A stretch of DNA of 64,000 nucleotides, from positions 774 to 64,773 of the forward strand of contig JAWBVE010000004.1 in the NCBI GenBank assembly GCA_038840695.1, in the 5' to 3' direction. The notes beneath the pieces are model-generated. The model searched no databases and had not been told where the DNA came from. It saw only the letters and a list, made by a program, of their open reading frames with translations. The DNA is from Candidatus Pacearchaeota archaeon (GTDB lineage: Archaea > Nanobdellota > Nanobdellia > Pacearchaeales > JAPDKA01). Positions 861 to 57,045 of the stretch are shown in pieces. Each line of letters begins with the position of its first letter. Position 1 is the stretch's first letter. A program made the translations under genes and the position numbers.

Positions 861-882
861 AATAAAATAGACAAAAAATAGA

Positions 883-4158: not shown

Positions 4159-4166
4159 AAAGAGGC

Positions 4167-6440
4167 ATGAAAGGAAAGATGGGAAGAAAGTTAATTGCTT
4201 TGTTTATTTTGCTTAGTTTACTTAGCATGAGCTTTTGCCTTGCTCTTTCATCCTCAGATGAACTTACAAAAGTTAAGAGAGGATATAATTGGTTAAATGC
4301 TAATGCAATAAAGCCAGGCTCAAACGAAATTGAGCTTAGCATCTCAACCTTTGCTCTGAAAGAGAGGCTTTCCACTAATCAAATCAAGCTCATAAACAAA
4401 ACCTTGCTTGAAAAAAGTTATGGCAATGGCACATGCTGGCCAGGGCCGCAAGAAAATAGCTGTGATGTGCTAGTGACTGCCATAGTAAAATTTGGGCTTG
4501 ATAGCATTGGCTTAGACACAAGCAAAGCAACCGAATGGCTTAGAAGGCATTTTATTCCTATTATGATTAGCGACATAAAATGGTATTTGCAGCTTACATC
4601 GCCAAACGCTTTTACATGTTATCTTAGAATCAATGATAGCGCAGTCATTCAGAATGTTAGCTTTAACGAAGCTGGAAGCATCGTGGCTTCTTCTCTTACT
4701 GAATGTTTTTCAGAAGCCGCGGCAAAGTATTGGCTAGAAATAAATCAATCATGTCTTAATAAAAGCTTTGAGATAATTTGTGATAAAGATGTTAAAGCAA
4801 ATTTTATTTTTGCAAGTAGTGCAAGCGGTGCATGGTTTGTACCTGGTGAAACTTTTGAGCTTAGTGCTAATGTAGCTAGCAAGTTGAGTATTCCTGTTCA
4901 ATATTGTCTTGCTCCTACCAATACTTGTAATTATGAAGCAAGCGCTTGGATGGCCTTTGCACTTCAACAAGTTAACTCATCTCTTGCAAGAAGCTTTTTG
5001 CTTTATCTTCTTTCAAAAGCTAGCGAAAATCAAAAGTATCTGCCTTATGCCTTTCTTTATGCTTTAATGAATAGCAGTGAATATTCGAGCAATGTTGTTG
5101 CATTAAGAAAGCCAAGTGGCTTGATCGAAGCGCCGAGTAGTGCTTATAACGAATACTATGACACAGGGCTTGCTGGAATGACAGGAGCCTTAGAAGGAGT
5201 AAATTTGTCAGTAACTAAGGCAACGCTTTTAAGTAATCAAAGTGCTCAGGGCTTTTGGCTTGCAAGCAGGAACAATGATACAATAAGGGATACAGCGCTG
5301 ATCCTGGCTGGAATATGGCCTGGCTTTACAGGCTATTCTGCCTGTGAGCTTGCAGGTTATAGTTGTGTAGCCAATTGCAGTGCTACTGGCGGCATCTTGC
5401 AGGCATTTTCATGCTTTGTTGGGGAATGTTGTAATATAAATGGCATTGAGGGAGCATGCGAGATTAGAGGAGGAAATTGCACAACAAATACAACATGCTC
5501 TGCTAATGAAACACAAGTGCCTTATGCATGCAGCTCTGGAAAATGTTGTAAGCCATTAAGTCAATCACTCTGTGTAGCTGAGATAAATGGTAGTGTTTGT
5601 CTACCAAGCCAGAAATGTGTTGCAGCAGGCTCTGTAGTTCCTTTCATAAGCTCGAGTGATAGCAATTATTGCTGTAAGGGCAATTGTACTACGCCGACTC
5701 CAACAAAAAGCTGTGCAGAGCTTGGCGGCGAGATTTGTGATTCTAATGCAGGCAAATCATGCTCTCAAGGAAAGTGGCTTCTTAATGCAAATGATACAAG
5801 CTTTTGCTGTCAGCAAGGCTATTGCTCGGCTGCTCTACTTCCTTGTGCTCAGCAAAATGGCATTATTTGTAAGCCTGATGAGGAGTGCGTTGGTGGTTAT
5901 CCTGTCATAGCATCTGATACAGGCAATAAGCCGAGCTGCTGTACTCAAGGCGGGAGATGTGTAGCAACAACATGCCAATATAGCTCTTGTGCTGAAGACG
6001 AAGGCTGTAGTGGAAAGAGCTATGAAACAAGTGATGCGCTAAAATGCTGTGAGGGAGAATGTTTAAAAAGCTGCTCAGCTCTTGGAGGCCAGACTTGTAA
6101 TGCTAATCAAAAATGCAAAGGCGAGCTTGTGAGTGCTTCAGATGTGACAAGTTGTTGCATTGGCCAATGCAAAGAAAAAGCTGGCTTTCCTTTTGGCATT
6201 TTAATTTTTATTTTACTAGTTCTTGGTCTTGGCGTAGCAGGCTTTATCTTATTCAAGAAAGGAAAGCTAAGTAAGGAAAAAATTAAAGCAGCCTTTAGTG
6301 GGCTTGGAAAAATAATAAAAATAAAGAAAAAGCCAAGGCCAGGAACAGGAGCACAGGCAGGCATGCCAGCAGCAATGCCTCCAACAATGCCGGCAATTCC
6401 CCGAGGAATGCCAAGGCCAGCAGGGCCAGGCACAAAGTAA
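4167..6440 (+). CDS. secreted surface protein: N-terminal alpha/alpha-toroid (prenyltransferase/terpene-cyclase-like QxxxGxW) domain + tandem Cys-rich modules + C-terminal TM anchor with Pro-rich tail
   Basis: The track ORF starts at 4134 and overlaps the upstream gene; the ATG at 4167 follows the upstream stop. Signal peptide LIALFILLSLLSMSFCLA. Motifs GTCWPG, SASGAWFVPG and NQSAQGFWLA match QW-type repeats. About ten ~35-aa modules with spacing C..LGG..C...C.G....SCC.G.C lie at nt ~5340-6180. A C-terminal TM (FPFGILIFILLVLGLGVAGFILF) is followed by a PAMPPTMPAIPRGMPRP tail. Confidence 0.6.
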   Translation: MKGKMGRKLIALFILLSLLSMSFCLALSSSDELTKVKRGYNWLNANAIKPGSNEIELSISTFALKERLSTNQIKLINKTLLEKSYGNGTCWPGPQENSCDVLVTAIVKFGLDSIGLDTSKATEWLRRHFIPIMISDIKWYLQLTSPNAFTCYLRINDSAVIQNVSFNEAGSIVASSLTECFSEAAAKYWLEINQSCLNKSFEIICDKDVKANFIFASSASGAWFVPGETFELSANVASKLSIPVQYCLAPTNTCNYEASAWMAFALQQVNSSLARSFLLYLLSKASENQKYLPYAFLYALMNSSEYSSNVVALRKPSGLIEAPSSAYNEYYDTGLAGMTGALEGVNLSVTKATLLSNQSAQGFWLASRNNDTIRDTALILAGIWPGFTGYSACELAGYSCVANCSATGGILQAFSCFVGECCNINGIEGACEIRGGNCTTNTTCSANETQVPYACSSGKCCKPLSQSLCVAEINGSVCLPSQKCVAAGSVVPFISSSDSNYCCKGNCTTPTPTKSCAELGGEICDSNAGKSCSQGKWLLNANDTSFCCQQGYCSAALLPCAQQNGIICKPDEECVGGYPVIASDTGNKPSCCTQGGRCVATTCQYSSCAEDEGCSGKSYETSDALKCCEGECLKSCSALGGQTCNANQKCKGELVSASDVTSCCIGQCKEKAGFPFGILIFILLVLGLGVAGFILFKKGKLSKEKIKAAFSGLGKIIKIKKKPRPGTGAQAGMPAAMPPTMPAIPRGMPRPAGPGTK

Positions 6441-6459
6441 ACACAAAATATGTGAGCAG

Positions 6460-7050
6460 ATGAAAAATAAGAGCAAGGCCAGGCACAAGAAACACAAGCT
6501 CGAGAAAAACTTACTAGCTGGGCGAGAAGAATGGCTAGTCCGAGGCAGGCGAGGCTTTGAGCTAAGCTTTACTTTTATTTTTTCTCTTATCTTGATTGCT
6601 GTCTTTATTTATGTTGCAATATGGGCGATAAAGCATTTTCTCGAGCTCAAAGATAGAACACTCATTCAGGCATCAATTGATGACATAAAATCCGAAATCC
6701 AAGAAACTTGGCAGGCAGAGGGCAAGCAAGAAACACTAGAATTTTTATTTCCAAAATCTGTAACTTATATTTGCTTCGCAAATTTAACTTCATTAACTTG
6801 TTTAGGAAAAGCTTATTGCTCAGACCTTAATAATTACTCTGCCTACTCCTCCTTTAAGCAATACAACACTTTTGTTCTACCATTCAAGCTTAAGGCAAAG
6901 TATGGCATTCAAGGAGCTTATTTGATTAAATGTGGAGGCATTGATTGTCTTACCTTTGCTAATCCGACGTGTATTCAAAATAAGGCAGGAAAAGTTAAGA
7001 TAAAATTTAGTGGCGTAGCAGGCGGCTTAGTCAATGTGAGTGCTGGCTGA
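6460..7050 (+). CDS. pilin-like protein (class III / type IV pilin-type leader)
   Basis: Basic N-terminus, then RRG|FELSFTFIFSLILIAVFIYVAIW. A positively charged leader, Gly, then a roughly 20-aa hydrophobic segment is the prepilin architecture. First of four adjacent similar genes. Confidence 0.5.
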   Translation: MKNKSKARHKKHKLEKNLLAGREEWLVRGRRGFELSFTFIFSLILIAVFIYVAIWAIKHFLELKDRTLIQASIDDIKSEIQETWQAEGKQETLEFLFPKSVTYICFANLTSLTCLGKAYCSDLNNYSAYSSFKQYNTFVLPFKLKAKYGIQGAYLIKCGGIDCLTFANPTCIQNKAGKVKIKFSGVAGGLVNVSAG

Positions 7051-7091
7051 CTTTAAGCGCATTTTTTTAAACTTATGTGGATTCTTTTTTT

Positions 7092-8102
7092 ATGGAGTTT
7101 GCAAAAAGAGGGGCGCAGAAAGCATGCAAGAGAAAAGCGCAAAATGCACGAAAGGCCCAAATGGCGCGAAAGGTGCAAAAGGCGCGAGCACAAAAAGCAC
7201 AGCTTTCGAGCTTTGCCTGGATTTTTAGCCTTATCATAGGCGCTGTAATTCTTTTCTTTGCCTTCTTTTTTGTAACACAATATGGCAAGCAAGTAGCAAA
7301 GCCAACAAAAGAAGTAAGTGTAGAGAGTGGCATAAATATTTTGCTCGAGCCATTCTCTGAAGTAGGCTCACTTGTTGAGGCTCAAGGCACTGCACTTGAA
7401 TTTCCTGCAGATAGCTACACTGAATTTGGTTGTAATGCGAATAATGACTATAGCGAAATAAAGTGGCGAAATAGAAAAGAAAAAACTTTTTCAATAATAA
7501 AGCAAGTTCCGGACAAATATATTTTTAGTAAGCCTCTCATTACAACACAAAAAGAAACCTTTTTTGCTTTTTCAATGCCACTCAAAGATCCTTTCTTTAT
7601 TGCAACCCCAGTAATAATTGTGGATGGCAAATATTGCTTAACAAACTTGCCTTATCAATACCGAACTAAGCTAGAAGAAATTTCTAAAGATATTATTAGC
7701 AAAACAAAATCAGCGATTAATTTTACTAATTGCCCATCAGATTACTATAAAATAGATATTGGTTGTAGTGCTTGCAATTATGGCTTTGTTGATGGCAAGC
7801 CGTGGTTTTCTGACTTGATTTATGCAGCAATATTTTCAGATTTTGATACATATAATTGCAATCTTGATAGAATTTTGGCTAGAGCAAAGATCTTAGCTTC
7901 TATTTATAAAACAAAAGCCCAACTACTTAGGAATAAAGGTTGTACCATAGGCAACATCGAAGGAGCTTTAGATAGCTTTATTACAGCCATAGATACTTTC
8001 ATGAAAAGCAAAACAGGAAACAATCTAGGTTCTTTATACAATTCAATAGTGCAACTCAGAAATATAAATGCAGGGCTTGTTGCTGATTGCAAGCTTTTTT
8101 AA
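7092..8102 (+). CDS. pilin-like protein (class III leader)
   Basis: The track start 7077 is GTG; an in-frame ATG lies at 7092. Lys/Arg/Ala/Gln-rich leader (KRKAQNARKAQMARKVQKARAQKAQ) followed by LSSFAWIFSLIIGAVILFFAFFFV. Confidence 0.5.
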   Translation: MEFAKRGAQKACKRKAQNARKAQMARKVQKARAQKAQLSSFAWIFSLIIGAVILFFAFFFVTQYGKQVAKPTKEVSVESGINILLEPFSEVGSLVEAQGTALEFPADSYTEFGCNANNDYSEIKWRNRKEKTFSIIKQVPDKYIFSKPLITTQKETFFAFSMPLKDPFFIATPVIIVDGKYCLTNLPYQYRTKLEEISKDIISKTKSAINFTNCPSDYYKIDIGCSACNYGFVDGKPWFSDLIYAAIFSDFDTYNCNLDRILARAKILASIYKTKAQLLRNKGCTIGNIEGALDSFITAIDTFMKSKTGNNLGSLYNSIVQLRNINAGLVADCKLF

Positions 8103-8103
8103 A

Positions 8104-8679
8104 ATGAAAGCCACAGCAAAAAGCAAAACAAGAGCAAGCACTAAGGCGAGGCAAGCACAAATACAATTTCAGGAGATGGCTTTTGTTTTAGTTGGCTTAA
8201 TACTTTTTTTCGGCCTTATTCTTATTTTCTTTAGCATTTACCAATCAGCAAGGATAAAAGAGCTCGCCGAAACAACGAGAAGAGAGGAAACAATATCAAA
8301 GATTCAGTCTATAGCAAATAGCCCAGAGTTTGCTTGTAGAGAGGCTTATTGTGTTGATGAGGAAAAGTTGCTTGGTTTTGCAGCCCTTGATGCTAGTAAA
8401 AAGCAAAGATATGAGAAGATGTGGGAAGGAGCAAAGATTGTGCTAATAGCTTTCGAGCGAATTTGGCCACAAAAAAAACAAGCTCTATGCAATGAAAGAA
8501 ATCCTCCTCCAGACTGCACCATCCATGTCATCTATAATAAGACAGCAGGCAAAAATTGGGAAAGCCATTCAATATTTGTGCCACTTTGCCACTACTTATC
8601 ACAAACTAGCAGCAGTGGCCTCAGTGGCTATCGATGCACAATAGGAAAAGCAGTCGTAGCTTTCGAGACAACAAAATAA
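8104..8679 (+). CDS. pilin-like protein (class III leader)
   Basis: The track start 8068 overlaps the upstream gene. The ATG at 8104 lies 1 nt after the upstream TAA (8100-8102). Leader KSKTRASTKARQAQ|IQFQEMAFVLVGLILFFGLILIFF, with Glu at +5 after the AQ site as in bacterial type IV pilins. Confidence 0.5.
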   Translation: MKATAKSKTRASTKARQAQIQFQEMAFVLVGLILFFGLILIFFSIYQSARIKELAETTRREETISKIQSIANSPEFACREAYCVDEEKLLGFAALDASKKQRYEKMWEGAKIVLIAFERIWPQKKQALCNERNPPPDCTIHVIYNKTAGKNWESHSIFVPLCHYLSQTSSSGLSGYRCTIGKAVVAFETTK

Positions 8680-8838
8680 AGCAAGGCAAAAAGCAAAAGC
8701 AAGCAAAAAAGATGGAAAACAAAAATGTGCAACAAGAAAAAATAAAACAAATGCTAAGCAAAAATAGAAAACAAAAAAAGTAAAATCAAAAAGCAAAAAT
8801 CAAAAAGTAAAAAAGCAAAAAAAGCAAAAAAGGCAAAA

Positions 8839-9396
8839 ATGGAAGAAAAAAACAAAAGAAAAGAGAAAAGAGCATGCTCTGTGAGAGCGCGAAGGGCGCA
8901 GCAAGAAGTTTTTGGCTTTGTTATTATTGTGCTACTTGTAATTGTTATAGGCATCATTATGCTAGCTTTTTCAATGCAGCGCAGCTTGAGAAAGCCTACA
9001 GCAGTGGCTGACATAAAAGTTAATAGCCTGCTTAATGCAATCATGCAATACACAAGCGAGTGCAACAACAAAAAAATCAGTGAAGTGATTGCAATGTGTG
9101 CGAATAATGAGCAGTGTGATGGTGGGGGAAACGCTTGTGATTATCTAACAAAGAATCTGACGGCTATTTTGAGTGCGAGCTTTCCTACTGTGAAGGACGG
9201 CAAAGGTTTTTTTAGTGGTTATAATCTGACTATTGGGGCTATTGGGACGCAGCCGTTTATTTCTATTACAGGCGGCGAGCAGAAGGGCAATGTTGTGGCA
9301 GGCTACTGGATAGTTCCAATACCACCAACAACAGGGCAACCAGCAACGAGCGTCGAGGCAAGACTTTATCTTTATTATCGAACAACGCAAACTTAG
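8839..9396 (+). CDS. pilin-like protein (class III leader)
   Basis: Leader RACSVRARRAQ|QEVFGFVIIVLLVIVIGIIMLAF. Preceded by a 150-nt A-rich leader (8690-8838). Confidence 0.5.
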   Translation: MEEKNKRKEKRACSVRARRAQQEVFGFVIIVLLVIVIGIIMLAFSMQRSLRKPTAVADIKVNSLLNAIMQYTSECNNKKISEVIAMCANNEQCDGGGNACDYLTKNLTAILSASFPTVKDGKGFFSGYNLTIGAIGTQPFISITGGEQKGNVVAGYWIVPIPPTTGQPATSVEARLYLYYRTTQT

Positions 9397-20517: not shown

Positions 20518-21756
20518 TCACTCAGCTTCATAATTAATTATTCTTACATTTTCTCGCGGCACACCTCTAATAACTATTGTCATATCGTCAAACTCAACTA
20601 CTATCTCCTCTTCCTCTCCCTCTTCCTCCTTGCTCTTGCTTTCCTCTTTTCTAGTTTTGATTATCCTTTTTTCGCTTTTACTTCCCCCACTTTCGCTTCT
20701 CCCACTTTTGCTTTTACTTTCATAACTTCTTTTATCGCCCTCATTTCCAACCTCATTTCCATAGCTCTTACTTTCTTCTTTCCTTTCTTCTTCTCTCGCT
20801 TTTCTAGCTGTTTCCAAATCTTTAGTAGTTTGCATGGTTTGCGTTTGTGTGATGGTTTGCGTGATCTGAGTAGATGAAATAGTTGATGTTGGATATTCAA
20901 AATTTTCAAAATCTTTTCCATAAATTAGCTTTACTTTTTCTTCAAGCGTTGCTTCTCTGCCTAATTTGCATTTTTCGGGCAAAAAGATCAATTGACCTAC
21001 TCTCAAGACATCAATGCTTCTCTCTACTTGTGGATTTAATTCATCAACTTCCGGGCCACAAATTCTTATAAGCTTTCTAAGAGAGTCGCCATACTTTGCA
21101 TTATATACTTTTGCTCTCGAGAAAGCATCATAATCAGTGGCATCATAATCAGTGCCTTTATTTTCTTTGCTTTTTTCAATTTTATAACAGGCATTTATTG
21201 TCTCAAAAACATTTTCAATATATTGCCTAACTATGGGCATTCTATTCCATCTTCCAACTTTATCTTCGCCGGCAACATAAGCAACTAAGGCATTTTCAAG
21301 GCTGCCATACTTTTCCATGCCCTCTTTTATTTCAGCAGCCCCAGCAATAACGCTAAAAGGTGAAAACCTCCAATCTTCAAAGCCATTTATTTCAAGCCCA
21401 TACTTTCTTGCGGTGAATTTCATAAGCTGCACAGGCCCGGCAGCTCCTTTGCTTGAGTAAGCATTTGGATTTCCTTTTGATTCAATAGCAATCAAGCCAG
21501 CCAATATGCAATAATCAAGTCCAAACATTTTTGCTGCTAGCTCAACAATCCCTCGATAGCTGTCAATATTTTTTAAATATCTTGCATAGTCATCATCACA
21601 GCTTTTCTTCTTGCAGTAGCTCATTACTTCACGCAAGGCAATAGGAACTAAAGAGCCATCTTGTGCTTTCGCATTGATAGGCATAAAGCTTAGTGTAAAT
21701 GGCAACGCAATTGGCAGCAAGGAAATATATTTTTTTACTTTTTCTAAAGCCCCCAT
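20518..21756 (-). CDS. secreted lytic transglycosylase (SLT/GEWL domain) with LysM domain and charged low-complexity C-terminal tail
   Basis: Signal peptide ISLLPIALPFTLSFMPINAKA. SLT catalytic block LIAIESKGNPNAYSSKGAAGPVQLMKFTA (ES..N....S..GA.G.MQ). LysM-like block YNAKYGDSLRKLIRICGPEVDELNPQVERSIDVLRVGQLIFLP. The tail is TQITQTITQTQTMQTT plus a K/E/S-rich stretch. Confidence 0.7.
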   Translation of the reverse strand: MGALEKVKKYISLLPIALPFTLSFMPINAKAQDGSLVPIALREVMSYCKKKSCDDDYARYLKNIDSYRGIVELAAKMFGLDYCILAGLIAIESKGNPNAYSSKGAAGPVQLMKFTARKYGLEINGFEDWRFSPFSVIAGAAEIKEGMEKYGSLENALVAYVAGEDKVGRWNRMPIVRQYIENVFETINACYKIEKSKENKGTDYDATDYDAFSRAKVYNAKYGDSLRKLIRICGPEVDELNPQVERSIDVLRVGQLIFLPEKCKLGREATLEEKVKLIYGKDFENFEYPTSTISSTQITQTITQTQTMQTTKDLETARKAREEERKEESKSYGNEVGNEGDKRSYESKSKSGRSESGGSKSEKRIIKTRKEESKSKEEEGEEEEIVVEFDDMTIVIRGVPRENVRIINYEAE

Positions 21757-21849: not shown

Positions 21850-22656
21850 ATGACTTTTATTAAAGCTATACTGCTTGCATCCGCTATTATAATCGGCCAA
21901 CAAGGCCAAGGCCAACAAGGGAAAACTTCATTAGAAAGTGAACTAGAAAAAATAGCTGCAATTTATTCTAGTTGTAGCTATGGCAACTATGAGAGCTGCA
22001 TTAAGGCATTTAGCATGTTACAAAAGCTGAGAAATGATGGCGATAGTTATGGAGTAAGGGCAATAAGAAAGAATAAGCGAGCTCTCGAGAAAAGCTTGAG
22101 TGAAATAATTAATAGGATTGATGAGGAAATTGCCGAGAGAGGATATGAATTTGATTCTAAGCTATTCTTCCCATTAAAAAATGTAAAATTAAGCGATATA
22201 GGCCTTGGTGGGTTTGTGGCTAGAAACTATGATTGGCTTGAAGGAAGTTTTTATAAGGGCCATCCAGCCTATGATATTTTTGTTTATGATAGGAATAGAG
22301 ATAGCTTAGATGATAGAACAAAAAAGCCAATAAAGATTTTTGCAGCGGCTGATGGCATTATTGTTTCTGTGTTTGATGAATGGGAAAAAAGTGGCAAAGG
22401 CAATGGAGGAAATTATATTTATCTTTATAACAGCAAACTGAAATATTTCTTTTACTATGCACACTTAGGCAAGATTTTTGTAAAGGAAGGTGATTTCGTG
22501 AGAGGAGGAGATGTTATTGCATATCTTGGCAGAACAGGGCGAGCAGCTGAGAGGCCTACTCATTTGCACTTTGCAATTTATTATTTTGATAAAGCCAAGA
22601 AAAATTTAGTTCCGGTTGATTGGATAAAGGAAAGATTATTTGATCTCCATTTGTAA
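21850..22656 (+). CDS. M23 family metallopeptidase (LytM/lysostaphin-like peptidoglycan endopeptidase)
   Basis: N-terminal signal (ILLASAIIIGQQGQG). HPAYDIF is the HxxxD motif. FAAADGIIVSV is present. NYIYLYNSKLKYFFYYAHL is followed by GRTGRAAERPTHLHFAI, the HxH zinc site. Divergently transcribed from the SLT gene. Confidence 0.75.
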   Translation: MTFIKAILLASAIIIGQQGQGQQGKTSLESELEKIAAIYSSCSYGNYESCIKAFSMLQKLRNDGDSYGVRAIRKNKRALEKSLSEIINRIDEEIAERGYEFDSKLFFPLKNVKLSDIGLGGFVARNYDWLEGSFYKGHPAYDIFVYDRNRDSLDDRTKKPIKIFAAADGIIVSVFDEWEKSGKGNGGNYIYLYNSKLKYFFYYAHLGKIFVKEGDFVRGGDVIAYLGRTGRAAERPTHLHFAIYYFDKAKKNLVPVDWIKERLFDLHL

Positions 22657-30863: not shown

Positions 30864-31253
30864 ATGAAAGAAAAAAGAGGGCTTTCATTTTTGATGCAGG
30901 TTGTTATAGAAATTTTATTTGTTATAGCCGTCTTTGCATTTCTTGCTTTCTTTATTAGTTCTGCAAAATATCTTGACACTAAGCGAGTAGCATTAGAGGA
31001 GCTTGCTTATAGTGCAACTATTCTCGATGAAGCTGAAATTAGCTTTAATACAAGCGAGTTCAATGCAAGTGAATTAAGGCTTGAAGATAGCACTTTTTCC
31101 TTGTCTTTAGCTCCTCTTATATCTTATAAGGCCAAAATTTATGCGAGCAAAGAAATGACACTTGAAGGAAATCATTTGAAAATTGGAAAGACAAAGGCCG
31201 AGACAAAGGCCAAAGCCAAAGACCAGACAAAAGCTGTTAGAGAAGAAGCTTGA
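30864..31253 (+). CDS. pilin-like protein (class III leader)
   Basis: MKEKRG|LSFLMQVVIEILFVIAVFAFLAFFISS, a canonical KRG plus hydrophobic leader. Confidence 0.5.
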   Translation: MKEKRGLSFLMQVVIEILFVIAVFAFLAFFISSAKYLDTKRVALEELAYSATILDEAEISFNTSEFNASELRLEDSTFSLSLAPLISYKAKIYASKEMTLEGNHLKIGKTKAETKAKAKDQTKAVREEA

Positions 31254-31273
31254 AGCTCTTAAATCTTGTTAAA

Positions 31274-31690
31274 ATGAAAAAGAAATTCAGCAAAGAAAAA
31301 GAAAGAAAGGGAAAAAAAGCGCAGCTTTTAGGCTCAGAGATTTTGCTTTGGTTTTATAGGTTTTGGTTGATTGCACTTGTTGCGATTGGCACATTGATTA
31401 TAGTAGGCAAATATCAAAGTATTACTCTTGATAAAAATCCTTTTATTGCTAGTAAGCTTGTTGCAGAAGTTATAAACTGTGAAGGCGATGACAGGCTAGA
31501 TTGCCTTAGCATAGGCCCTGAAGATGACATTTATGTAAGTTATGATGGCAAGGCGAAAGGAAATGAAAATTACAGGCTTTATTGTGAGTTAATAAAGCAA
31601 GGTAGAGAAGTTACTCATTTAGATTTATATTGTAAGGAATATAAAATTTTTGATAAAACTTTATATCTTGCTGTTGCAAGAAAAAAATGA
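31274..31690 (+). CDS. pilin-like protein (class III leader)
   Basis: The track start 31250 is TTG and overlaps the upstream stop; an ATG lies at 31274. Leader KERKGKKAQ|LLGSEILLWFYRFWLIALVAIGTLIIV, with Glu at +5. Confidence 0.5.
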   Translation: MKKKFSKEKERKGKKAQLLGSEILLWFYRFWLIALVAIGTLIIVGKYQSITLDKNPFIASKLVAEVINCEGDDRLDCLSIGPEDDIYVSYDGKAKGNENYRLYCELIKQGREVTHLDLYCKEYKIFDKTLYLAVARKK

Positions 31691-32094
31691 TTGCGAAAAG
31701 AGCAAAGAAAGCAAAAAAAGCTAGGAAAGCACAAACAAGCTTTTTAGGCTTGATGCTGACAACTTTTATCCTTGTTTTCTTAATTCTTCTTTTCTTTATT
31801 GCATCTTTTTTTGTGTCTGGAAAAAAGACAACAATAAAGCTTGGCGAGAGGCTAACAGAAAAAAATTTGAATTATTTTTTGCTTCATAACATAACAGGCT
31901 CCAGTCTAGACAGCATTTATAAATGTGTGCTCAACAAAGAAAGTTGCTCTGCTGAACTTGATAAGCTCAATAGGCTTGAAATTAATTTCTTGAACATAGA
32001 AAAAATAGCCACTATAGAAGCCATGCAAGAGGAAGAGCTTCTCTTGCCCTTTACTGAGTCAAAAGTAATTTTAGTTAAGGTAAGAGAAAAGTAA
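31687..32094 (+). CDS. pilin-like protein (class III leader)
   Basis: ATGA overlap with the upstream gene. Leader KKAKKARKAQ|TSFLGLMLTTFILVFLILLFFIASFFV. Confidence 0.5.
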   Translation: MIAKRAKKAKKARKAQTSFLGLMLTTFILVFLILLFFIASFFVSGKKTTIKLGERLTEKNLNYFLLHNITGSSLDSIYKCVLNKESCSAELDKLNRLEINFLNIEKIATIEAMQEEELLLPFTESKVILVKVREK

Positions 32095-32274
32095 AAGAAA
32101 AATAAAATAAGTTGCAACAAAGCGAAAAAAAGAAAAAAGCAAACAAGAAAAAAGAAAAGAAAAAAAGAGAAATCAATGAAAAAGTGCAATAAAAAAAGGT
32201 TAAAGCAAAAAACAAAAAGATAAAACAAAAGAAAATCAAAAACAGCAAAGAGAATAAACAAAAGAAATCGCAAA

Positions 32275-33063
32275 ATGAAAAAAAGCAAAAAAGGCTTTGC
32301 ACTTTTTCCAATACTTATTGTTATCGTCGCTTTAATTATCTTTAATATGGCCTTTTATGGCTTGTTGACAAAAACAAAGCAAAAAATAAAAAATATCGAG
32401 CAGCTTGACGAGATTTTAGACTATAGATGGTTTGTTGAAAGCTCAGAACTTTTTTTAAACAACTCAATTAAACTTGCGTATTCAAATTCACTGAAAGAGT
32501 TTTTTTTGCAAATTGATAGAAGCGAAACTTGTAGAGTAACAGAGTTTCAAGGAATGAAATGCTTTTCGCTTAGCAATTGCTACTTTGATAAAACAATCTT
32601 TCTTGAAAATTTTAATACTAATTTTAATAAATATCTCGAGAGCTTGAAAAGAATAAGCGAGAGGCGGGGAATAAACTTAACTTATGCCTGTAGCATAACT
32701 GACGGCGAAGGCAAGACACTTCGATGTAATCTTGTCTTTGAAAAAAACTTTACTCACCAATTTTTAAATTTAAGCATAAAGAAAAAAATAGAATATAAAA
32801 GCGACCTTGATTTTAGTGAGCTTGACAAGCTTGAAAGCGCGAGAAAAGCTCTGTTAAAGTTAAAAGAGGCAAACAAACTTGGACAGGGCGAACTTGAGCA
32901 GAGCGAGCAGAGTATTAGCTTTGATGAGATTGGGGCTGAAATAAGGGGGCAAGATCAAGACCAAGGCGGGAGGCTTTATGCTATTATAAAAACAAAAGAA
33001 AAGTTTTTTGTTCAAGGCGAGCAACTTAAATATGAGCCTATTGAAGTATGTTTTATTTTTTGA
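32275..33063 (+). CDS. pilin-like protein (class III leader)
   Basis: MKKSKKG|FALFPILIVIVALIIFNMAFYGLL. Preceded by a 180-nt A-rich spacer. Confidence 0.5.
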   Translation: MKKSKKGFALFPILIVIVALIIFNMAFYGLLTKTKQKIKNIEQLDEILDYRWFVESSELFLNNSIKLAYSNSLKEFFLQIDRSETCRVTEFQGMKCFSLSNCYFDKTIFLENFNTNFNKYLESLKRISERRGINLTYACSITDGEGKTLRCNLVFEKNFTHQFLNLSIKKKIEYKSDLDFSELDKLESARKALLKLKEANKLGQGELEQSEQSISFDEIGAEIRGQDQDQGGRLYAIIKTKEKFFVQGEQLKYEPIEVCFIF

Positions 33064-34475: not shown

Positions 34476-35480
34476 CTACTCTTCCTTATCGCTAATTCCT
34501 TGTGGGGTTATGAAAATTATGGTCTCATTGTCTGGGAGATTTGGGCTATCAATAAGCTTAATTATCCTGCTATTCCCTTTTCCTCTTCTAAAATAAAGCC
34601 TGTAAGTTGATGCATGTCCAACTATATGTCCGCCAATAGCTCTTGTTGGGTCACCAAACATCATCGATGGATCAGCCATTACTTGATTTGTAACATAAAC
34701 AGCAAGATTGTACTGCTCAGCTAGCCTCATTAATGTATGCAAATACTTGTTCAATTTCTGCTGTCTGTCAGCAAGAGTGCCACGCCCAATATATTCTGCT
34801 CTAAAATGACTTGTTAATGAATCGACAATAATAAGCTTAATATGCTCGCCTTCTCTAAGCATTTCTTGGATTTTGTCAAGGAGGAGTATTTGGTGATCAC
34901 TATTAAAAGCTCTTGCAACAAAAATATTATTGAGTGTTTTCTCAGGATCAAGGCCTTTAGCCAAAGCAAGCTGCTTTATTCGTTCTGGCCTAAAAGTTCC
35001 TTCAGTGTCAATGTAAATTGCTTTTCCTCCAGCACCACCTTCCTCAAGAGGTAGTTGTACATTAATAGCAAGTTGATGTGCTACTTGTGTTTTACCAGAG
35101 CCAAATGCACCAAAAGCTTCTGTTATGGCTTTTGTTTCAACACCCCCTCCAAGTAAATTGTCAAAATTTTTACTGTTTGTTGTTATTTTTATTATCTCTT
35201 TCCTTCTTTTTTCGTAAGCAAGGCCAGTATCAAAGTCAAGTTTTAGGAATTTTCTTGCAGCAGCAATAATCTTTCTTGCAACACCTTCAGAAGCCTCAAT
35301 TGTTGTAGCAAGCTCTGCAGGAGGCATAACCGCTATTGCCATCAAGTCAGTAAAGCCAGCCTCTTCAAGCTTTTTTAATGTTGCAGCTCCAACACCAGGC
35401 AAATCCTTCAGCTCAAACTCCTTTTCTCTTTCCTCTTTTTCCTTCTTTTCTTTTTTCTCTTCTTTTTCTTTCTCAGCCAT
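34476..35480 (-). CDS. radA: DNA repair and recombination protein RadA
   Basis: The track start 35486 is TTG; an ATG lies at 35480. HhH region [17 protein letters not shown]. Walker [24 protein letters not shown] is present. Walker [15 protein letters not shown]-rich N-terminal extension. Confidence 0.9.
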
Positions 35481-35574
35481 AATCAAAAAAAGCCCTTTTA
35501 TTTATAAAGCTTGTTGATTTTTTTTGCTACTAAGCATAAATAGCAAGCTATAACACAGCTATGCAGTTCTATAG

Positions 35575-36612
35575 CTATGCTTTGTATACTTTGCTATGCT
35601 CCTTCCTTTTATTCTTTTTATACCTGCAATAACCACTTTTTCCATTACTTTTTGCTTGCATCATTGCTTCATCGGCATGCTTCAAAAGCTCGAGCATTGA
35701 AAAAGAATCATAGCCATAAGTTGCACCACCTACACTAATCTCTATTCTGCCCTTAAACTCAGGCACTTCTTTTGCAAATTCGATTGTGGCATAGTTGCTT
35801 ACTTCTTTGACAATTCGCTCTCCAATTTTATCAACTTCTTTTGGCAATGTTTCTGGGATAATAACAACAAATTCATCACCTTTATAACGTCTTCCTATTA
35901 TGTCAGTAGTACGGCAATACCTTTTCAAGCCCTCAGCAATCAGCTTTAACGCAAGATCGCCTCTTAAATGATTATAGTTATCATTTATTGCCTTAAAATT
36001 GTCAACATCGATAAAAAGAAGCGAGACATATTTTTTCTTTTTGCTTCTTTTTGCTCGCTCTACTTCTTTTTTTAATTGCTCCATGATATATCTCTCATTA
36101 TATAGACCAGTAAGACTATCTATTATAGCTTCTTGTTTTAATGTTTCTATTGCTCTAGTTTGCTTTGCTCCTAGAAAATGAACTAACCAATCAAGTTTTT
36201 GCATTTCTTTCCAAAGCTCAATTGCTTGTTTTCTTGCCTTTCTTGATAAGTAAAATCTCAACTTTGATATTCTATCAGGAATCTTCGGTGCAAGATAGTT
36301 AAGCATTATCTCTGCAAATTGATTTTTTCTTGCCCTTTCTTCTTCATAACTTGAATCTGTAACTACTTCTGACATAAGTGTATATTGCCTTTTTAGAATT
36401 GTTTTAAGATTCCCAATGAGTTCTCTAAGTTTTATTCTTATATTTATGTAATCATTATATTTGAAGTGAACATTTATTGGCTGTTTTAGTGCTTCTTTTT
36501 TCCAAGAAAGAAATTCTTCCTGACTACTTAACTCTTTTAGAAATCTCTCTACATAAACCTTTACCTTTCTATCAGCATTTTTTAATTTTTCTTCAAAAGC
36601 TATATTTTTCAT
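35575..36612 (-). CDS. GGDEF-domain protein (diguanylate-cyclase fold) with KGDEF signature variant and N-terminal helical domain
   Basis: DSLTGLYNERYI. FIDVDNFKAINDNYNHLRGD. GRRYKGDEFVVIIPET, with KGDEF in place of GG(D/E)EF. ISVGGATYG. HADEAMMQAKSNGKSG. Confidence 0.75.
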   Translation of the reverse strand: MKNIAFEEKLKNADRKVKVYVERFLKELSSQEEFLSWKKEALKQPINVHFKYNDYINIRIKLRELIGNLKTILKRQYTLMSEVVTDSSYEEERARKNQFAEIMLNYLAPKIPDRISKLRFYLSRKARKQAIELWKEMQKLDWLVHFLGAKQTRAIETLKQEAIIDSLTGLYNERYIMEQLKKEVERAKRSKKKKYVSLLFIDVDNFKAINDNYNHLRGDLALKLIAEGLKRYCRTTDIIGRRYKGDEFVVIIPETLPKEVDKIGERIVKEVSNYATIEFAKEVPEFKGRIEISVGGATYGYDSFSMLELLKHADEAMMQAKSNGKSGYCRYKKNKRKEHSKVYKA

Positions 36613-37682
36613 TTTTCTCTTCCTTTTTTCTCTTTTTTCTTTTCTTCCATATTAATAATTAGAAAATTAGTATCTGAAATAACTTGTTGAATTTCAGGTA
36701 GCTCTTCACTTTGATCCTCACTTTGATCTTCACTTCGTCCATTTTCTTTACCTTTTTCTTCTTTTTCAATTGCAATTTCAAGTTCATATTCATCATCTAT
36801 ATTTTTTTCTTTACTGCCTAAAATGCCAGGATCAAAAAAAATCTTTTCGATTTCACTTGGCCTAAGTTCACTATTGTCACTTTCTTCCTCAACTTCGACC
36901 TCTATCTCATATTCTTCTATCTTTTCCAATTTTGTTCGCTTATCTTCAATTAGATCTTTTATCATGCTGACATCATAGTCTTTCATAGATTCCTTAGCTT
37001 TATCTTTAACCTTAATGTTCCTATATTGCTCTTCAGAATAAAAATTAATCGCGTGAAGATTATCTTTTATTAGTTCTTTGATTTTTTCATAGCCAGAAAC
37101 ATCATCTAAGGCCTTTATAAACCATTCTTTAAAGACCATCAACTCATCAAACCAATAGCGATGTGCAACTTCGGAAAGCTCTTTCTTTAGATCATAGGCT
37201 GGATCGTAGGAATTTGCATAAATATCAGCAATTTTTTCGCATAGATCACTAAGCTCCTTAATTAATCTTTCATGTTCAGTTTTTTCAATTAATGTCGAGC
37301 CAATTCGAATTTTTTCTTCTCTTTCCATTTTTTCTAATTCACCCCCATCAACCTTACTCTCAACCTCAACCTTTTCTATTTCTAAAGGATCTTCATCGTA
37401 AACCCAATTACCAAGTGCATCGTTTGTCCTTATATAATTAATAATTAAACTTAAGTCACCTTCAAACGCTCTTTTGAAAGCTTCAATAAGTCTTTCTCTT
37501 GTCATCCCCCCTCCAATTTTCATTGCTTTATCCGAATTTGAAAACCAACCAAGCCATCCAATAATCTGCGAACAATCGAAATTGTTATCGTAAATTTCAT
37601 TCCCGAAATATTTCTTAATATCGCGAGCTATTTCCTCCATTATTTTTTCATATTCTTTTTTGCTAATTTTTTTCTTTTTCAT
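36609..37682 (-). CDS. acidic hypothetical protein, translationally coupled to the GGDEF gene
   Basis: ATG at 37682. The stop overlaps the GGDEF start (ATGA at 36609-36612). Highly acidic E/D-rich protein. No known motif. Confidence 0.4.
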   Translation of the reverse strand: MKKKKISKKEYEKIMEEIARDIKKYFGNEIYDNNFDCSQIIGWLGWFSNSDKAMKIGGGMTRERLIEAFKRAFEGDLSLIINYIRTNDALGNWVYDEDPLEIEKVEVESKVDGGELEKMEREEKIRIGSTLIEKTEHERLIKELSDLCEKIADIYANSYDPAYDLKKELSEVAHRYWFDELMVFKEWFIKALDDVSGYEKIKELIKDNLHAINFYSEEQYRNIKVKDKAKESMKDYDVSMIKDLIEDKRTKLEKIEEYEIEVEVEEESDNSELRPSEIEKIFFDPGILGSKEKNIDDEYELEIAIEKEEKGKENGRSEDQSEDQSEELPEIQQVISDTNFLIINMEEKKKEKKGREK

Positions 37683-37792: not shown

Positions 37793-38209
37793 ATGCCTTT
37801 CAAAATTGGGAAAATAAAATCAAAACTCAAAATGAAAAGTGAAAAAGGCAAAATGGAAAGCCCAGAAGAAAAAGTAAGAAAGATAAGGGAAGAAATAATG
37901 CATATGAGAGATGAAGATTTAGTTAAATATGGAGACTTAGCTTCCTATATATTATTTGGATATTTGCACGGGGACAGAAATTTAATTGAAGAAGTAAGAT
38001 ATTATATAAACTCCCGTGATCCATTAATTCATGATGCGGATTGGTTTAGGCCAATAAGGATACAACAAAGTTTTGTTGATAAGCTAATATATTTTATAAA
38101 TATCCTTCGAGAAATTCAAAGGAGAGAAAATATTGATGAATTTACAAAAGAGTATGCCGTAGAGCTTTTAGAAAAAATTAGAGCACATTATTTAAAAAAA
38201 GATAAATAA
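37793..38209 (+). CDS. hypothetical protein
   Basis: ORF with an ATG start. Lys-rich N-terminus. No motif. Confidence 0.3.
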   Translation: MPFKIGKIKSKLKMKSEKGKMESPEEKVRKIREEIMHMRDEDLVKYGDLASYILFGYLHGDRNLIEEVRYYINSRDPLIHDADWFRPIRIQQSFVDKLIYFINILREIQRRENIDEFTKEYAVELLEKIRAHYLKKDK

Positions 38210-38210
38210 A

Positions 38211-38942
38211 ATGAGAAAGAAATTAGCAGCAATTATCTTCAGCCTTGCACTTGCTGGCTTTGTAGGCTGTGCAGGAATGAGGAGCCAGGTTAGTTGGGTT
38301 AAAAGTTATTATAAGAAATATTATGCAGCGCTTAGTAGCAAAGAAAATTATAGTAAAAATTTAAAAAAACTTGAAGAGGATGAATATGTGCTGCCAAATG
38401 ATGTTTTTGAAGCTTATGCAAAAATAGTCATGGGGAATTACCCTCTCCCCCCAGAACAAATAGGAGGATACATAAATGTGCCACTGAACTCTAAAAACTA
38501 CGAAAAATTTAGGAATGCATTGAAAGACAACTATAGCGAACAAGAAATAGCACTTTTTTATTCAATACTAAGCAAAAAAGGTAATATAATAATTAAGGAA
38601 AAAGCCTTAGATGAAGCCTTAAATGATCCGGATTTGGATACAATCTTAATTCACGAAAGAACTCATAAAGAATTTGATAAGTTAAGTAATAAAGAAAAGA
38701 ATAAAGTATGTAAAGTTCATGAGCTCTTTAAGCAAATGAAAAATCCTGATGGAACGTATTTTTTGAATTTTAAAAGGTCGTCTATGGGCTTCGGCAATTT
38801 TATCGAGCTCTACGCAAATTGTGATGAATTTTTTCCTTTCCTTGTTACAGATTCATTACGCCAAGAAGTGGAGCAAGAGCTAAGAAAATATCCTGATGTT
38901 TATAAAATCTTTGAAAAAATCAAGGCAAAAGTTAAAAAGTAA
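38211..38942 (+). CDS. putative lipoprotein with HExxH motif (possible zinc metallopeptidase)
   Basis: Lipobox-like LALAGFVGCAG. LDTILIHERTHKEF contains H-E-R-T-H. Starts 2 nt after the upstream gene. Confidence 0.4.
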   Translation: MRKKLAAIIFSLALAGFVGCAGMRSQVSWVKSYYKKYYAALSSKENYSKNLKKLEEDEYVLPNDVFEAYAKIVMGNYPLPPEQIGGYINVPLNSKNYEKFRNALKDNYSEQEIALFYSILSKKGNIIIKEKALDEALNDPDLDTILIHERTHKEFDKLSNKEKNKVCKVHELFKQMKNPDGTYFLNFKRSSMGFGNFIELYANCDEFFPFLVTDSLRQEVEQELRKYPDVYKIFEKIKAKVKK

Positions 38943-38960: not shown

Positions 38961-39033
38961 TGCCCCCACGAGGACTCGAACCTCGATTACAGGCTCCGCA
39001 AGCCCGTGGCCTATCCAATTAGCCGATGGGGGC
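38961..39033 (-). tRNA. tRNA-Arg (anticodon GCG)
   Basis: The reverse complement folds as acceptor GCCCCCA/UGGGGGC, D arm GGCU-AAUUGGAUA-GGCC, anticodon arm CGGGC-UUGCGGA-GCCUG, T arm CGAGG-UUCGAGU-CCUCG, discriminator A. Confidence 0.85.
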
Positions 39034-39113: not shown

Positions 39114-39542
39114 TTAACTGCCAGCTATTATATCAGCAATAAATGCAACAGCCATGCTCAACGTTAATAAATCAATTATGAAGCAATATCTGCATACAGC
39201 TTTTATCACAAAAAACTGCAAAAATATAAGATAGAGTGAGAATAATGACATAGCAACGAGGAGAAAAAATATAGCTTTATCTTTAGTATTGCTTGGATTT
39301 TTTATTTGTGCAGCACTCAGCAAGGCTAAAATCAAAAATGCAAGTATGCCTAGAATGCTTAAGGGCATTCCAGCAATATCAGAGAAAGCACTTGCATCGA
39401 CAATCGCACAGCCTCCACTGACAAAGCAAGAGTCAGCAGGCTTGAGTTTGTTAATTTCAATGTAGGCAGAAATAACTAAGCTTATTATTGAAACAATTAA
39501 TATATATGCAAGCACGATTTTTTTTCTTTTTTTAGCTTCCAT
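39114..39542 (-). CDS. VKOR-like (vitamin K epoxide reductase family) membrane protein
   Basis: Four TM segments. Loop Cys pair SCFVSGGCAIVDASAFSDIAGMPLSILG (C......C..V..S.....G.P...G). CRYC (CxxC) in the last TM region. Confidence 0.55.
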   Translation of the reverse strand: MEAKKRKKIVLAYILIVSIISLVISAYIEINKLKPADSCFVSGGCAIVDASAFSDIAGMPLSILGILAFLILALLSAAQIKNPSNTKDKAIFFLLVAMSLFSLYLIFLQFFVIKAVCRYCFIIDLLTLSMAVAFIADIIAGS

Positions 39543-55407: not shown

Positions 55408-57045
55408 ATGGAAATACTTGAATTTATAAAAAAAACTGCAAGTGCTTTTTCTAAAGCAATAGAAAGCAATAAGCAAATAGCTCTTTTTTGCCATTATGAT
55501 GCAGATGGCCTAAGCTCAGTAGCTCTTTTCGCTAAAGTGCTCAAAGCCTTAAACAAAAAATTTTTTATTAGAGTTTTAAATAGCTTAGATGAATCAATTG
55601 TCAAAGAAATAAAACAAGAAAGCAAAAATTTTTCAGCAGCAGTCTTTCTTGATCTGGCTTCTAATGCCGATTTTTCAGGATTTGAGTGTGATGTGTTTGT
55701 TATTGATCATCATATAATAAGGAAGCAAAGTCAAGAAGAAAGCCAAGAACAAGAAGAGCAAGAGAGGCAAGATTGGCAAGACGTGCAAGATTGGCAAGAT
55801 GGAAAAGATGTGCAAGTGCAAGAGGAGGAACGAGAGGGGCAGCCAGGAGCAAAGCAAGAGCAAGATTGGCAAGAGCAAGAAAGTCAAGAGCAGAGAAAAA
55901 GAGTGCATTTAATTAATTACAGGCTATTTCAAGATAGCGAGGATTATGAAACAAGCGCGAGCATTTTGAGTTATTTTTTTGTTTCAAGCTTGGATTTTGT
56001 GCATAAAAGCCATAGCCATAAAAGCCTTGAGCTAAAGCAACTTAAGCCAATAGCTCTTATTGGGCTTATTGGTGATGGCCTTGATAGGAGGCTCAGTAAG
56101 CTTAGTAGCTTTTTTTTAAAAAAAGCAAGAGAAAGCGGGGCAATTGATATTAAAAAAGGAATTAGCATTTTTTCATATTCGAGGCCAATTCATAGAGCTA
56201 TTGAATTTAGCTCAATATACATTCCGGGAATAACTGGTAATAGCGAAGCTGTGGTAGAATTTCTTAGAAGTTTAGGCATTGAATTAAAAGAGGGCAATAA
56301 ATATAGAACATTTGCTGATTTAAGCAAAGAAGAGATTTCAAGGTTAATAACTGCCATTGCCACTTTAAGAGCTTATGAAAACAAAGGGATTGATTTTATA
56401 GGAAATGTTTACTTGGCTAGATTTTTTGATACAGTAGAAGATGCAAAAGAAATAACAACAGCAATAAATGCATGTGGCAGACTTGGCAAAGGCTATTTGC
56501 CTCTTGCCTACTTGCTTGGGAACAAAAGGGCTCAAGAGCTTATAGAAAAAACATATGCTGAATACAAGTTTGAAATAATGAAAGCATTTGAATATATAAA
56601 TGAAATACAGCAAAATGAAACAAATCAGGAAAATGAGATAAATGAAAAAGGTGAAATGAATGAGAGAAATCAAATTATTAAAAATCGAATTATCAAAGGA
56701 GATAATTGGATAATCATAGACGGGCATGATAAAATAAAGGATAGCATAATAGGTGTTATCTGCTCAATGATTGCTAACTCTGGCATTTATAAAGATGGCT
56801 CTGTAATAGTTGGGTTAGCAGATAGGCACGATGGAGATGAAGTTAAAACCAAGGTTAGCATAAGAACTGTCAATAGCCCAAAAGCTCTTGCTTTATTGAA
56901 TAAAGTGGCTCAAGTTGTGAATATTAGTGAGATGGGAGGCCATGAGATGGCCGCCGGAGCATGGCTTGATATTAGGCAAAAAGGAGCATTTTTAAAATGT
57001 ATAGAAAAAATTTTGCAAGAAGAAAGCGTGACAATAAAAATTTAA
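55408..57045 (+). CDS. recJ: RecJ/GAN (Cdc45-like) DHH-family phosphoesterase with low-complexity Q/E/W insertion
   Basis: DHH motif I CHYDADGLSS. Motif III VFVIDHH. DHHA1 block MGGHEMAAGAW. The insertion (QDWQDVQDWQDGKDVQ...) lies at nt ~55725-55900. rps15-recJ adjacency is the conserved archaeal arrangement. Confidence 0.75.
   Translation: MEILEFIKKTASAFSKAIESNKQIALFCHYDADGLSSVALFAKVLKALNKKFFIRVLNSLDESIVKEIKQESKNFSAAVFLDLASNADFSGFECDVFVIDHHIIRKQSQEESQEQEEQERQDWQDVQDWQDGKDVQVQEEEREGQPGAKQEQDWQEQESQEQRKRVHLINYRLFQDSEDYETSASILSYFFVSSLDFVHKSHSHKSLELKQLKPIALIGLIGDGLDRRLSKLSSFFLKKARESGAIDIKKGISIFSYSRPIHRAIEFSSIYIPGITGNSEAVVEFLRSLGIELKEGNKYRTFADLSKEEISRLITAIATLRAYENKGIDFIGNVYLARFFDTVEDAKEITTAINACGRLGKGYLPLAYLLGNKRAQELIEKTYAEYKFEIMKAFEYINEIQQNETNQENEINEKGEMNERNQIIKNRIIKGDNWIIIDGHDKIKDSIIGVICSMIANSGIYKDGSVIVGLADRHDGDEVKTKVSIRTVNSPKALALLNKVAQVVNISEMGGHEMAAGAWLDIRQKGAFLKCIEKILQEESVTIKI

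Follow-up and report, generated by a model that had tools for sequence, protein, structure and literature searches.

Does this archaeal DNA carry a GGDEF-domain gene of its own, and does the encoded protein still work as a diguanylate cyclase? The question is raised by a locus on contig JAWBVE010000004.1 of a Candidatus Pacearchaeota archaeon, from which a stretch of 64,000 nucleotides (in the following the window) was analyzed. On its minus strand the window contains the gene of a 345-aa protein with a GGDEF domain and, overlapping with it, an open reading frame (ORF) for an acidic protein of 357 aa. A preliminary description of this DNA, made from the sequence alone, had called GGDEF domains extremely rare in archaea, and this agrees with published censuses, in which they are nearly absent (PMC5847659, PMC8646023). 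Signalling by cyclic di-GMP (c-di-GMP) is seen as essentially bacterial, and archaeal GGDEF hits from metagenomes are regarded as possible contamination (PMC5847659, PMC10086821). More than 300 unverified BLAST hits in metagenome-assembled genomes (MAGs) of Asgard and DPANN archaea are on record, and the worry about contamination is stated (PMC5847659, PMC8646023, PMC10086821). Here the gene is located on the chromosome of an archaeon and is no contaminant. Its product, from a member of the Pacearchaeota (DPANN), truly belongs to the GGDEF family; judged from its residues, it probably works like a diguanylate cyclase and is best filed as an unproven one.

The 345-aa protein matches Pfam family PF00990 over residues 162-325 with E=3e-37 (128.3 bits, cut-off 23.8) and the NCBIfam model TIGR00254 with 140.9 bits (cut-off 37.4). 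The match to Pfam GGDEF_GdpP is weak and with 26.9 bits below the cut-off of 30. Both significant matches lie on an archaeal contig and bear out the GGDEF domain recognized in the preliminary description. The motif blocks listed there are all present, in the form DSLTGLYNER, DVDNFKAINDNYNHLRGD, RRYKGDEF and SVGGATY; the first block, however, reads N-E-R and not N-R. An exact-sequence look-up identified the protein as NCBI entry MEM1534993.1, 'GGDEF domain-containing protein [Ca. Pacearchaeota archaeon]'. Public records already carry this label, and the family assignment itself is not new.

An AlphaFold2 (AF2) model, built on an alignment of 58 sequences, has a mean predicted local distance difference test score (pLDDT) of 90, with values of 94-98 over most of the GGDEF domain. 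A Foldseek search with the model revealed 102 PDB matches at E<=1e-3. All of the 50 matches listed are GGDEF-domain proteins, nearly all of them diguanylate cyclases, and stalk or coiled-coil enzymes take the top ranks (PadC 5llx, WspR 3bre, PleD, DgcB 6ttr and DgcR 6zxb). In the model the N-terminal part forms helices at residues 4-11, 15-30, 32-41, 52-80, 89-107 and 117-122. They are followed by a helix of 40 residues (124-163), which runs straight into the GGDEF domain and into which the HMMER alignment to DgcR and WspR also reaches. The modeled architecture is a lineage-specific helical N-terminal domain, a stalk helix of about 40 residues and the GGDEF domain. The protein is strongly basic (pI 9.6), and its C-terminal tail is rich in Lys and Arg.

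Homologs of the complete protein are scarce. A search of 5.8 billion clusters yielded two full-length homologs only: P0001 from a Pacearchaeota MAG (72% identical, motif RGDEF) and P0002 from a JGI metagenome (57% identical, motif KGDEF). For the N-terminal 160 residues, an exhaustive HMMER search of 1.84 billion representatives returned only P0002 and a third protein, P0122. Scans with an alignment of this part found one locus in GTDB genomes and one in JGI metagenomes. The N-terminal ~160 aa have no match in Pfam. This agrees with the earlier view of a helical region of 160 aa with no assigned function: the model is all-helical, and two cluster representatives in 1.84 billion proteins share the region.

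The residues of the active site were mapped in the window protein, P0001 and P0002 against 55 bacterial GGDEF sequences and, in addition, by HMMER alignments to DgcR and WspR. The residues D202, K207, N210, H215, D219, R242, G245, D246, E247, F248 and K321 are kept in all three archaeal proteins. We take them to correspond, in this order, to D327, K332, N335, H340, D344, R366, G369, E370, E371, F372 and K442 of PleD, and K325, which is kept in the window protein and in P0001, to R446. The metal-binding residues D202 and D246 are invariant in the three proteins, and the equivalent positions are Asp or Glu in 55 of the 55 bacterial sequences. The guanine-recognizing residues N210 and D219 are conserved as well, and therefore GTP rather than ATP is predicted as substrate. 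In the column of K325, Lys is also the commonest residue of the bacterial set. According to this mapping, the window protein retains every Mg2+-, guanine- and phosphate-binding residue of characterized diguanylate cyclases. An alignment of this kind had been proposed in the preliminary description for the metal-binding and catalytic residues and for the inhibitory I-site. The former are all kept in comparison with WspR, DgcR and the 55 bacterial sequences; for the latter a candidate RxxD is present (R234-T-T-D237), but its distance to the signature motif is six residues and not five.

Active diguanylate cyclases are marked by the signature GG[D/E]EF. The window protein shows KGDEF instead and P0001 RGDEF, and R-Y is preceded by one more Arg. 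K244 stands for the first Gly of the motif, as had been noticed before, and it is kept as Lys or Arg across the clade; G245, D246, E247 and F248 are intact. In the bacterial set the column of K244 contains 52 Gly, two Ala and one Ser. R241 is a one-residue insertion (GRRYKGDEF versus GRYGGDEF) at a position where 0 of the 55 bacterial sequences have a residue; it had escaped the preliminary description. A further change, NER instead of NRR, is common to the window protein, P0001 and P0002. A census of the motif in the 121 best GGDEF hits gave as first residue Gly (111), Ala (6), Ser (3), His (2), Ile (1) and Asp (1), and Lys or Arg at this position was confined to archaeal proteins. In the same hits the spacing between RxxD and the motif is five residues in 111 cases and six solely in the archaeal pair. 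Accordingly, the RTTD, six residues before the motif, is one position out of register in an ungapped alignment with WspR. By sequence comparison the hairpin is remodeled to GRRY[K/R]GDEF, a signature variant not described before. A literature search found no paper on KGDEF or RGDEF or on archaeal diguanylate cyclases, and the combination of Pacearchaeota and diguanylate cyclase likewise gave nothing specific.

The origin of this variant can be traced with P0122, the representative of a 9-member cluster with contigs of up to 735 kb. P0122, encoded on contig L007, is homologous to the window protein over the full length (44% identity) and has the N-terminal domain and the stalk in common with it. 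It differs in having the canonical NRR and GRYGGDEF without an insertion, and its gene adjoins neither radA nor tRNA-Arg; the neighboring genes on L007, deoxyhypusine synthase included, are of archaeal type. Because P0122 combines the same N-terminal domain with GRYGGDEF, the [K/R]GDEF-plus-insertion state is, on this comparison, derived from a canonical GRYGGDEF ancestor. Compared with the bacterial set, each of the four archaeal GGDEF domains has its best hit among the other three, and therefore the architecture arose once. The closest non-archaeal GGDEF domains are bacterial and show 40-47% identity, which makes a bacterial origin of the gene, proposed earlier as horizontal acquisition, plausible. 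In P0122 (L007 9917-11053) DxD reads EID, with Glu at the position of the first metal-binding Asp, and the ND that comes next reads NT. In the bacterial GAF-GGDEF proteins closest to the archaeal clade (P0008, P0011 and P0016) the guanine-binding Asp is replaced by Ser (GHLVGS). This substitution is characteristic of Hypr GGDEF enzymes, which make cyclic GMP-AMP.

At least four MAG records contain the GGDEF protein without any amino-acid difference. Between the window and the 99.2% identical strain represented by contig L005, the gene shows four synonymous and no nonsynonymous differences; by its substitution pattern it is under purifying selection. The surrounding genes of the window are archaeal and comprise RNase P RNA, RadA/Rad51, RPA, PolB, FEN1, a Y-family polymerase, exosome subunits, proteasome alpha, SBDS and Rpb6. 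The RadA protein matches an NCBI protein of a Candidatus Pacearchaeota MAG (P0123) with 100% identity. The GC content and the GC content at third codon positions (GC3, 0.24) of the GGDEF gene match those of its neighbors.

The features of the locus are collected in the following table.

Features of the GGDEF locus within the 64-kb window (positions are those of the window)
Feature	Position	Strand	Basis or remark
radA (Rad51/RadA recombinase), directly downstream of GGDEF gene, conserved flank	34476..35486	-	Pfam Rad51 1e-96, 100% identity to P0123
GGDEF-domain protein gene	35575..36612	-	345 aa, pI 9.6; ORF, Pfam, TIGR00254, AF2, exact-sequence look-up
GGDEF catalytic domain, residues 162-325	35638..36129	-	Pfam envelope and residue mapping
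Remodeled signature hairpin R241-R242-Y243-K244-G245-D246-E247-F248	35869..35892	-	sequence, alignment, motif census
RxxD (R234-T-T-D237), candidate inhibitory I-site	35902..35913	-	alignment and motif census
Long stalk helix, residues 124-163, putative coiled-coil dimerization element	36124..36243	-	AF2, Foldseek, HMMER
N-terminal lineage-specific helical domain, residues 1-~123, putative sensor/interaction domain	36244..36612	-	AF2 helices, no Pfam match
ATGA stop/start overlap of acidic ORF and GGDEF gene, 4 nt	36609..36612	-	sequence read
Acidic orphan ORF, 357 aa	36609..37682	-	upstream of GGDEF gene, overlaps GGDEF start
Two uncharacterized ORFs, 138 aa and 243 aa, co-inserted with acidic ORF	37793..38942	+	ORF calls
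tRNA-Arg(GCG), variable insertion spot immediately 3'	38961..39033	-	ARAGORN, Rfam
VKOR-family gene, conserved flank on other side of spot	39114..39542	-	Pfam VKOR 2e-21; synteny in L001, L008-L010

The analysis of gene neighborhoods suggested in the preliminary description was carried out for the radA locus. In the window and on contigs L001 and L004 the GGDEF gene is located directly upstream of radA; next come an RPA-like gene and four small ones. This order of GGDEF, radA and RPA is kept in three lineages with GGDEF proteins that are only 57-72% identical. For comparison we used the relatives L008, L009 and L010, whose RadA proteins are 77-85% identical. They have the surrounding synteny in common, with glycyl-tRNA synthetase (GlyRS), VKOR, tRNA-Arg(GCG) (L008 and L010), radA, RPA and the small genes. 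Neither gene calls nor tblastn found a GGDEF gene at the radA locus of these three relatives. The order is VKOR, a 55-aa ORF, tRNA-Arg and radA in L010, with 65 bp from the tRNA to radA; VKOR, tRNA-Arg, two small ORFs and radA in L008; and VKOR and radA in L009, in which tRNA-Arg was not found. L001 shows VKOR, tRNA-Arg, GGDEF and radA, and the window VKOR, tRNA-Arg, the 243-aa ORF, the 138-aa ORF, the acidic ORF, GGDEF and radA. The cargo 3' of tRNA-Arg(GCG) thus varies by genome from nothing over two small ORFs or GGDEF alone to GGDEF plus three orphan ORFs. Since it differs among L001, L008, L010 and the window, the spot 3' of tRNA-Arg is a site of recurrent gene gain. One sub-clade carries the GGDEF gene there as accessory cargo, 3' of tRNA-Arg(GCG) between VKOR and radA. 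In the insert no integrase and no att-like repeat of the tRNA 3' end were detected (low-complexity chance repeats only), and it gave no PADLOC match and no informative PHROG match.

Two observations concern the genes next to this site. The mechanically called ORF of radA begins with TTG at 35486, but the ATG at 35480 is the likelier start; a TTTATAAATA box lies 28 nt upstream, and this start agrees with the 334-aa database protein P0123. The four consecutive small genes at 30864-33063 on the plus strand (129, 146, 135 and 262 aa), which adjoin the RPA gene and occur also in L001, L004 and L008-L010, each encode a pilin-like product in which a hydrophobic helix comes after a basic N-terminus, with no match in Pfam or NCBIfam.

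The acidic ORF corresponds to NCBI entry MEM1534992.1, 'hypothetical protein' (exact-sequence look-up). The ATGA overlap reported earlier is real, and so is the acidic character of the product (pI 4.71; 91 Asp and Glu versus 61 Lys and Arg), which has no known domain and gave no match in Pfam, NCBIfam, PHROG and PADLOC. The gene order, however, had been read the wrong way round: the stop codon of the acidic ORF overlaps with the start of the GGDEF gene, and along the minus strand the acidic ORF precedes the GGDEF gene. Its only homologs in a word-indexed search of the 5.8 billion clusters are ~99% identical copies from the same population. An AF2 model from the single sequence was unusable (pLDDT 34). 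The ORF was not found beside the GGDEF gene in L001, L004 and L007. In comparison with L005 it shows three synonymous and five nonsynonymous differences, and seven residues are polymorphic among four variants. The co-inserted 138-aa and 243-aa ORFs have no match in Pfam and NCBIfam; by tblastn they were detected solely in the same-strain contig L005 and are absent from L001 and the other relatives examined. The 138-aa ORF differs from its L005 counterpart by one synonymous and three nonsynonymous changes, and the product of the 243-aa ORF resembles a lipoprotein at its N-terminus (…LAGFVGC) and contains the HExxH motif HERTH. From these sequence comparisons, the acidic ORF is part of a later, strain-specific insertion of three genes at the same spot.

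A separate AT-rich region with TTTATAAATA boxes precedes the GGDEF gene in L001 and L004. In the window the acidic ORF fills the space upstream of the GGDEF gene, and a TTTATAAATA box is located 64 nt upstream of the acidic ORF. Co-transcription of both genes in this strain is therefore likely, but secondary. The strict TTTATAAA box occurs in 4 of 62 genes, which is too rare to prove or disprove an internal promoter of the GGDEF gene and serves as a hint only.

These data bear on three explanations of the locus that differ from an inserted archaeal gene. Galperin et al. cautioned about contaminated archaeal contigs (PMC5847659), and a bacterial GGDEF gene could have been wrongly joined to archaeal DNA during assembly or binning. 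The chance of this is next to nil: archaeal genes flank it on both sides within a single contig, its junctions recur in at least five contigs from different samples and at the orthologous locus of two other lineages, GC3 resembles that of the neighbors, and the N-terminal domain was found solely on contigs of archaeal gene content. Contamination was ruled out by synteny and composition. A recombination or DNA-damage signalling enzyme which reports on or regulates RadA would resemble the bacterial disA-radA(sms) pairing, a linkage that exists in bacteria. The order of GGDEF, radA and RPA, kept in three lineages in spite of GGDEF proteins of only moderate identity, and the basic protein with its Lys/Arg-rich tail fit such a function. 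We nevertheless judge it improbable. The equally related genomes L008-L010 keep VKOR, radA and RPA without GGDEF, and the insertion spot explains the adjacency of GGDEF and radA without a functional link. In addition, radA has a TATA-like box of its own, the relative with the canonical motif in L007 adjoins unrelated genes, and archaeal RadA and bacterial RadA/Sms are not orthologs. Still less credible, and very improbable in our view, is the proposal of the preliminary description that the two genes constitute a dedicated module, the acidic product being its effector or receptor. The ATGA overlap, the common strand and, in this strain, the lack of room for a promoter between the two genes speak for it. 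The proposal fails on an acidic ORF that lies upstream and not downstream, is strain-specific with no homolog outside its own population and does not occur in L001, L004 and L007, in which a separate upstream region precedes the GGDEF gene. Moreover, the ratio of nonsynonymous to synonymous differences is 5:3 in the acidic ORF versus 0:4 in the GGDEF gene. The lesson is a negative one: an ATGA overlap with an orphan gene is no evidence of a functional module.

With the gene thus placed as accessory cargo of an archaeon, its activity has to be weighed. On the residues retained, we lean slightly towards a dimeric, GTP-binding GGDEF enzyme that would still turn over GTP. In the monomer model the 40-residue helix before the domain resembles the stalks of WspR, PadC and DgcR, and the protein may dimerize through it; it would bind GTP-Mg2+ and most probably keep GGDEF-type chemistry, that is synthesis of c-di-GMP, possibly slow or differently regulated, and the N-terminal domain would gate this activity. 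The acidic ORF, as a later insertion, would now supply the upstream context for transcription and translation of the GGDEF gene and is not a conserved functional partner. Several points weigh against an active cyclase. P0002 is without an equivalent of K325, the second phosphate-binding basic residue. The confidence of the AF2 model is lowest at the hairpin, where pLDDT dips to 84, and the inserted Arg shifts the RxxD-to-motif spacing. Within the 64-kb window phmmer queries detected no EAL, HD-GYP or HDOD domain, Pfam scans of the 62 largest non-overlapping ORFs of >=100 aa revealed no EAL, HD-GYP or PilZ domain, and Rfam found no c-di-GMP riboswitch. To our knowledge, no c-di-GMP receptor is known in archaea. 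The partners which the preliminary description had proposed to look for (PilZ, EAL and HD-GYP) were thus not found in the window, and the c-di-GMP signalling circuit it implied is not supported by these 64 kb. The main alternative is a catalytically dead GGDEF domain, in which Lys or Arg and the insertion would abolish the cyclase and the protein would serve as a sensor or scaffold that binds GTP or a cyclic dinucleotide. Non-catalytic GGDEF domains have precedents in PdeA/CC3396, PopA, PelD and FimX; the remodeled hairpin, modeled at lower confidence, and the lack of a visible partner phosphodiesterase or effector in the window are consistent with this explanation. A saturation mutagenesis of VCA0965 from V. 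cholerae is the sole systematic scan of the first motif position; only its variants with A, G, H and M were active (PMC3974145), and K and R are not among these four. Hunter et al. stress, however, that the tolerance at this position depends on context (PMC3974145), and the inserted R241 may compensate for the K/R substitution. Moreover, receptor-type GGDEF domains usually lose several catalytic residues, whereas D202, K207, D246 and E247 are kept down to 57% identity. A dead domain is a candidate of some weight, although the less likely one. To a bolder variant of the active enzyme we give a smaller chance: the [K/R]GDEF clade might be an active, archaea-native cyclic-dinucleotide synthase in which K/R, as basic residue of the hairpin tip, and the inserted Arg provide a new solution for substrate or transition state, possibly with an altered product or feedback. 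A reading as defence system (mCpol/Cas10-like or CBASS-like) was rejected, because PADLOC gave no match and the domain scores as a classical GGDEF domain.

Some further genes of the window deserve mention. A DHH/DHH-CID/DHHA1 protein of 545 aa is encoded at 55408-57045 on the plus strand; its CID domain points to a GAN/RecJ-Cdc45-like nuclease rather than to a cyclic-dinucleotide phosphodiesterase. An SLT lytic transglycosylase (20518-21756, minus strand) adjoins a Peptidase_M23 protein (21850-22656, plus strand). Both are bacterial cell-wall hydrolase types, and the pair might point to interaction with bacterial cells. At 21-9396 seven consecutive ORFs are located on the plus strand, including two of 1091 aa and 768 aa; none of the seven has a match in Pfam, and for these two largest ones this holds even at E<=0.1.

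Taken together, the locus is a clean counter-example to the notion that archaea are nearly devoid of GGDEF domains and that archaeal hits may be contamination: three Pacearchaeota lineages have the GGDEF gene fixed at a single site of the chromosome, with host-like composition and under purifying selection, and the sister clade on other archaeal contigs can be added. New here is a true archaeal family of GGDEF proteins, whose N-terminal domain is an orphan and whose signature variant had not been described. For a first biochemical test of diguanylate cyclase activity in an archaeon the protein is a well-defined candidate, and it offers a natural experiment on how far the GGDEF hairpin can change by Lys or Arg plus an insertion with the rest of the active site kept. 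Should the enzyme be active, it would be the first demonstrated case of GGDEF signalling in Archaea, and a DPANN symbiont would have a second-messenger system of bacterial style, for example for attachment to its host.

Among the known systems the stalk-type diguanylate cyclases WspR (3BRE), PleD (1W25/2V0N), DgcR (6ZXM), PadC (5LLX) and DgcB (6TTR) are the closest in structure. They share the GGDEF fold (Foldseek E 1e-15 to 1e-10) at 26-33% identity, and the metal-, guanine- and phosphate-binding residues, the helix leading into the domain and the RxxD upstream of the motif are the same. In contrast to these enzymes the window protein has Lys for the first Gly (Arg in P0001), the inserted Arg, an RxxD spacing of six instead of five and NER for NRR. 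Instead of their REC, PAS, GAF or phytochrome input it contains the orphan helical N-terminal domain, and its host is an archaeon. VCA0965 (AGDEF) and ECA3270 (SGDEF) resemble it in that they deviate at the first motif position only, with the rest of the active site kept, and they demonstrate that c-di-GMP synthesis tolerates changes at this position (PMC3974145). They carry, however, the small residues A and S (H or M in mutants) without an insertion, whereas the archaeal clade combines Lys or Arg with an insertion. PdeA/CC3396 (GEDEF), PopA, PelD, FimX and GdpP also have a deviating signature motif, which raises the possibility of binding without catalysis. These proteins are fused to or paired with EAL or another output and have usually lost several catalytic residues; in the window protein, the GGDEF domain is the only recognizable output and a single motif residue differs.

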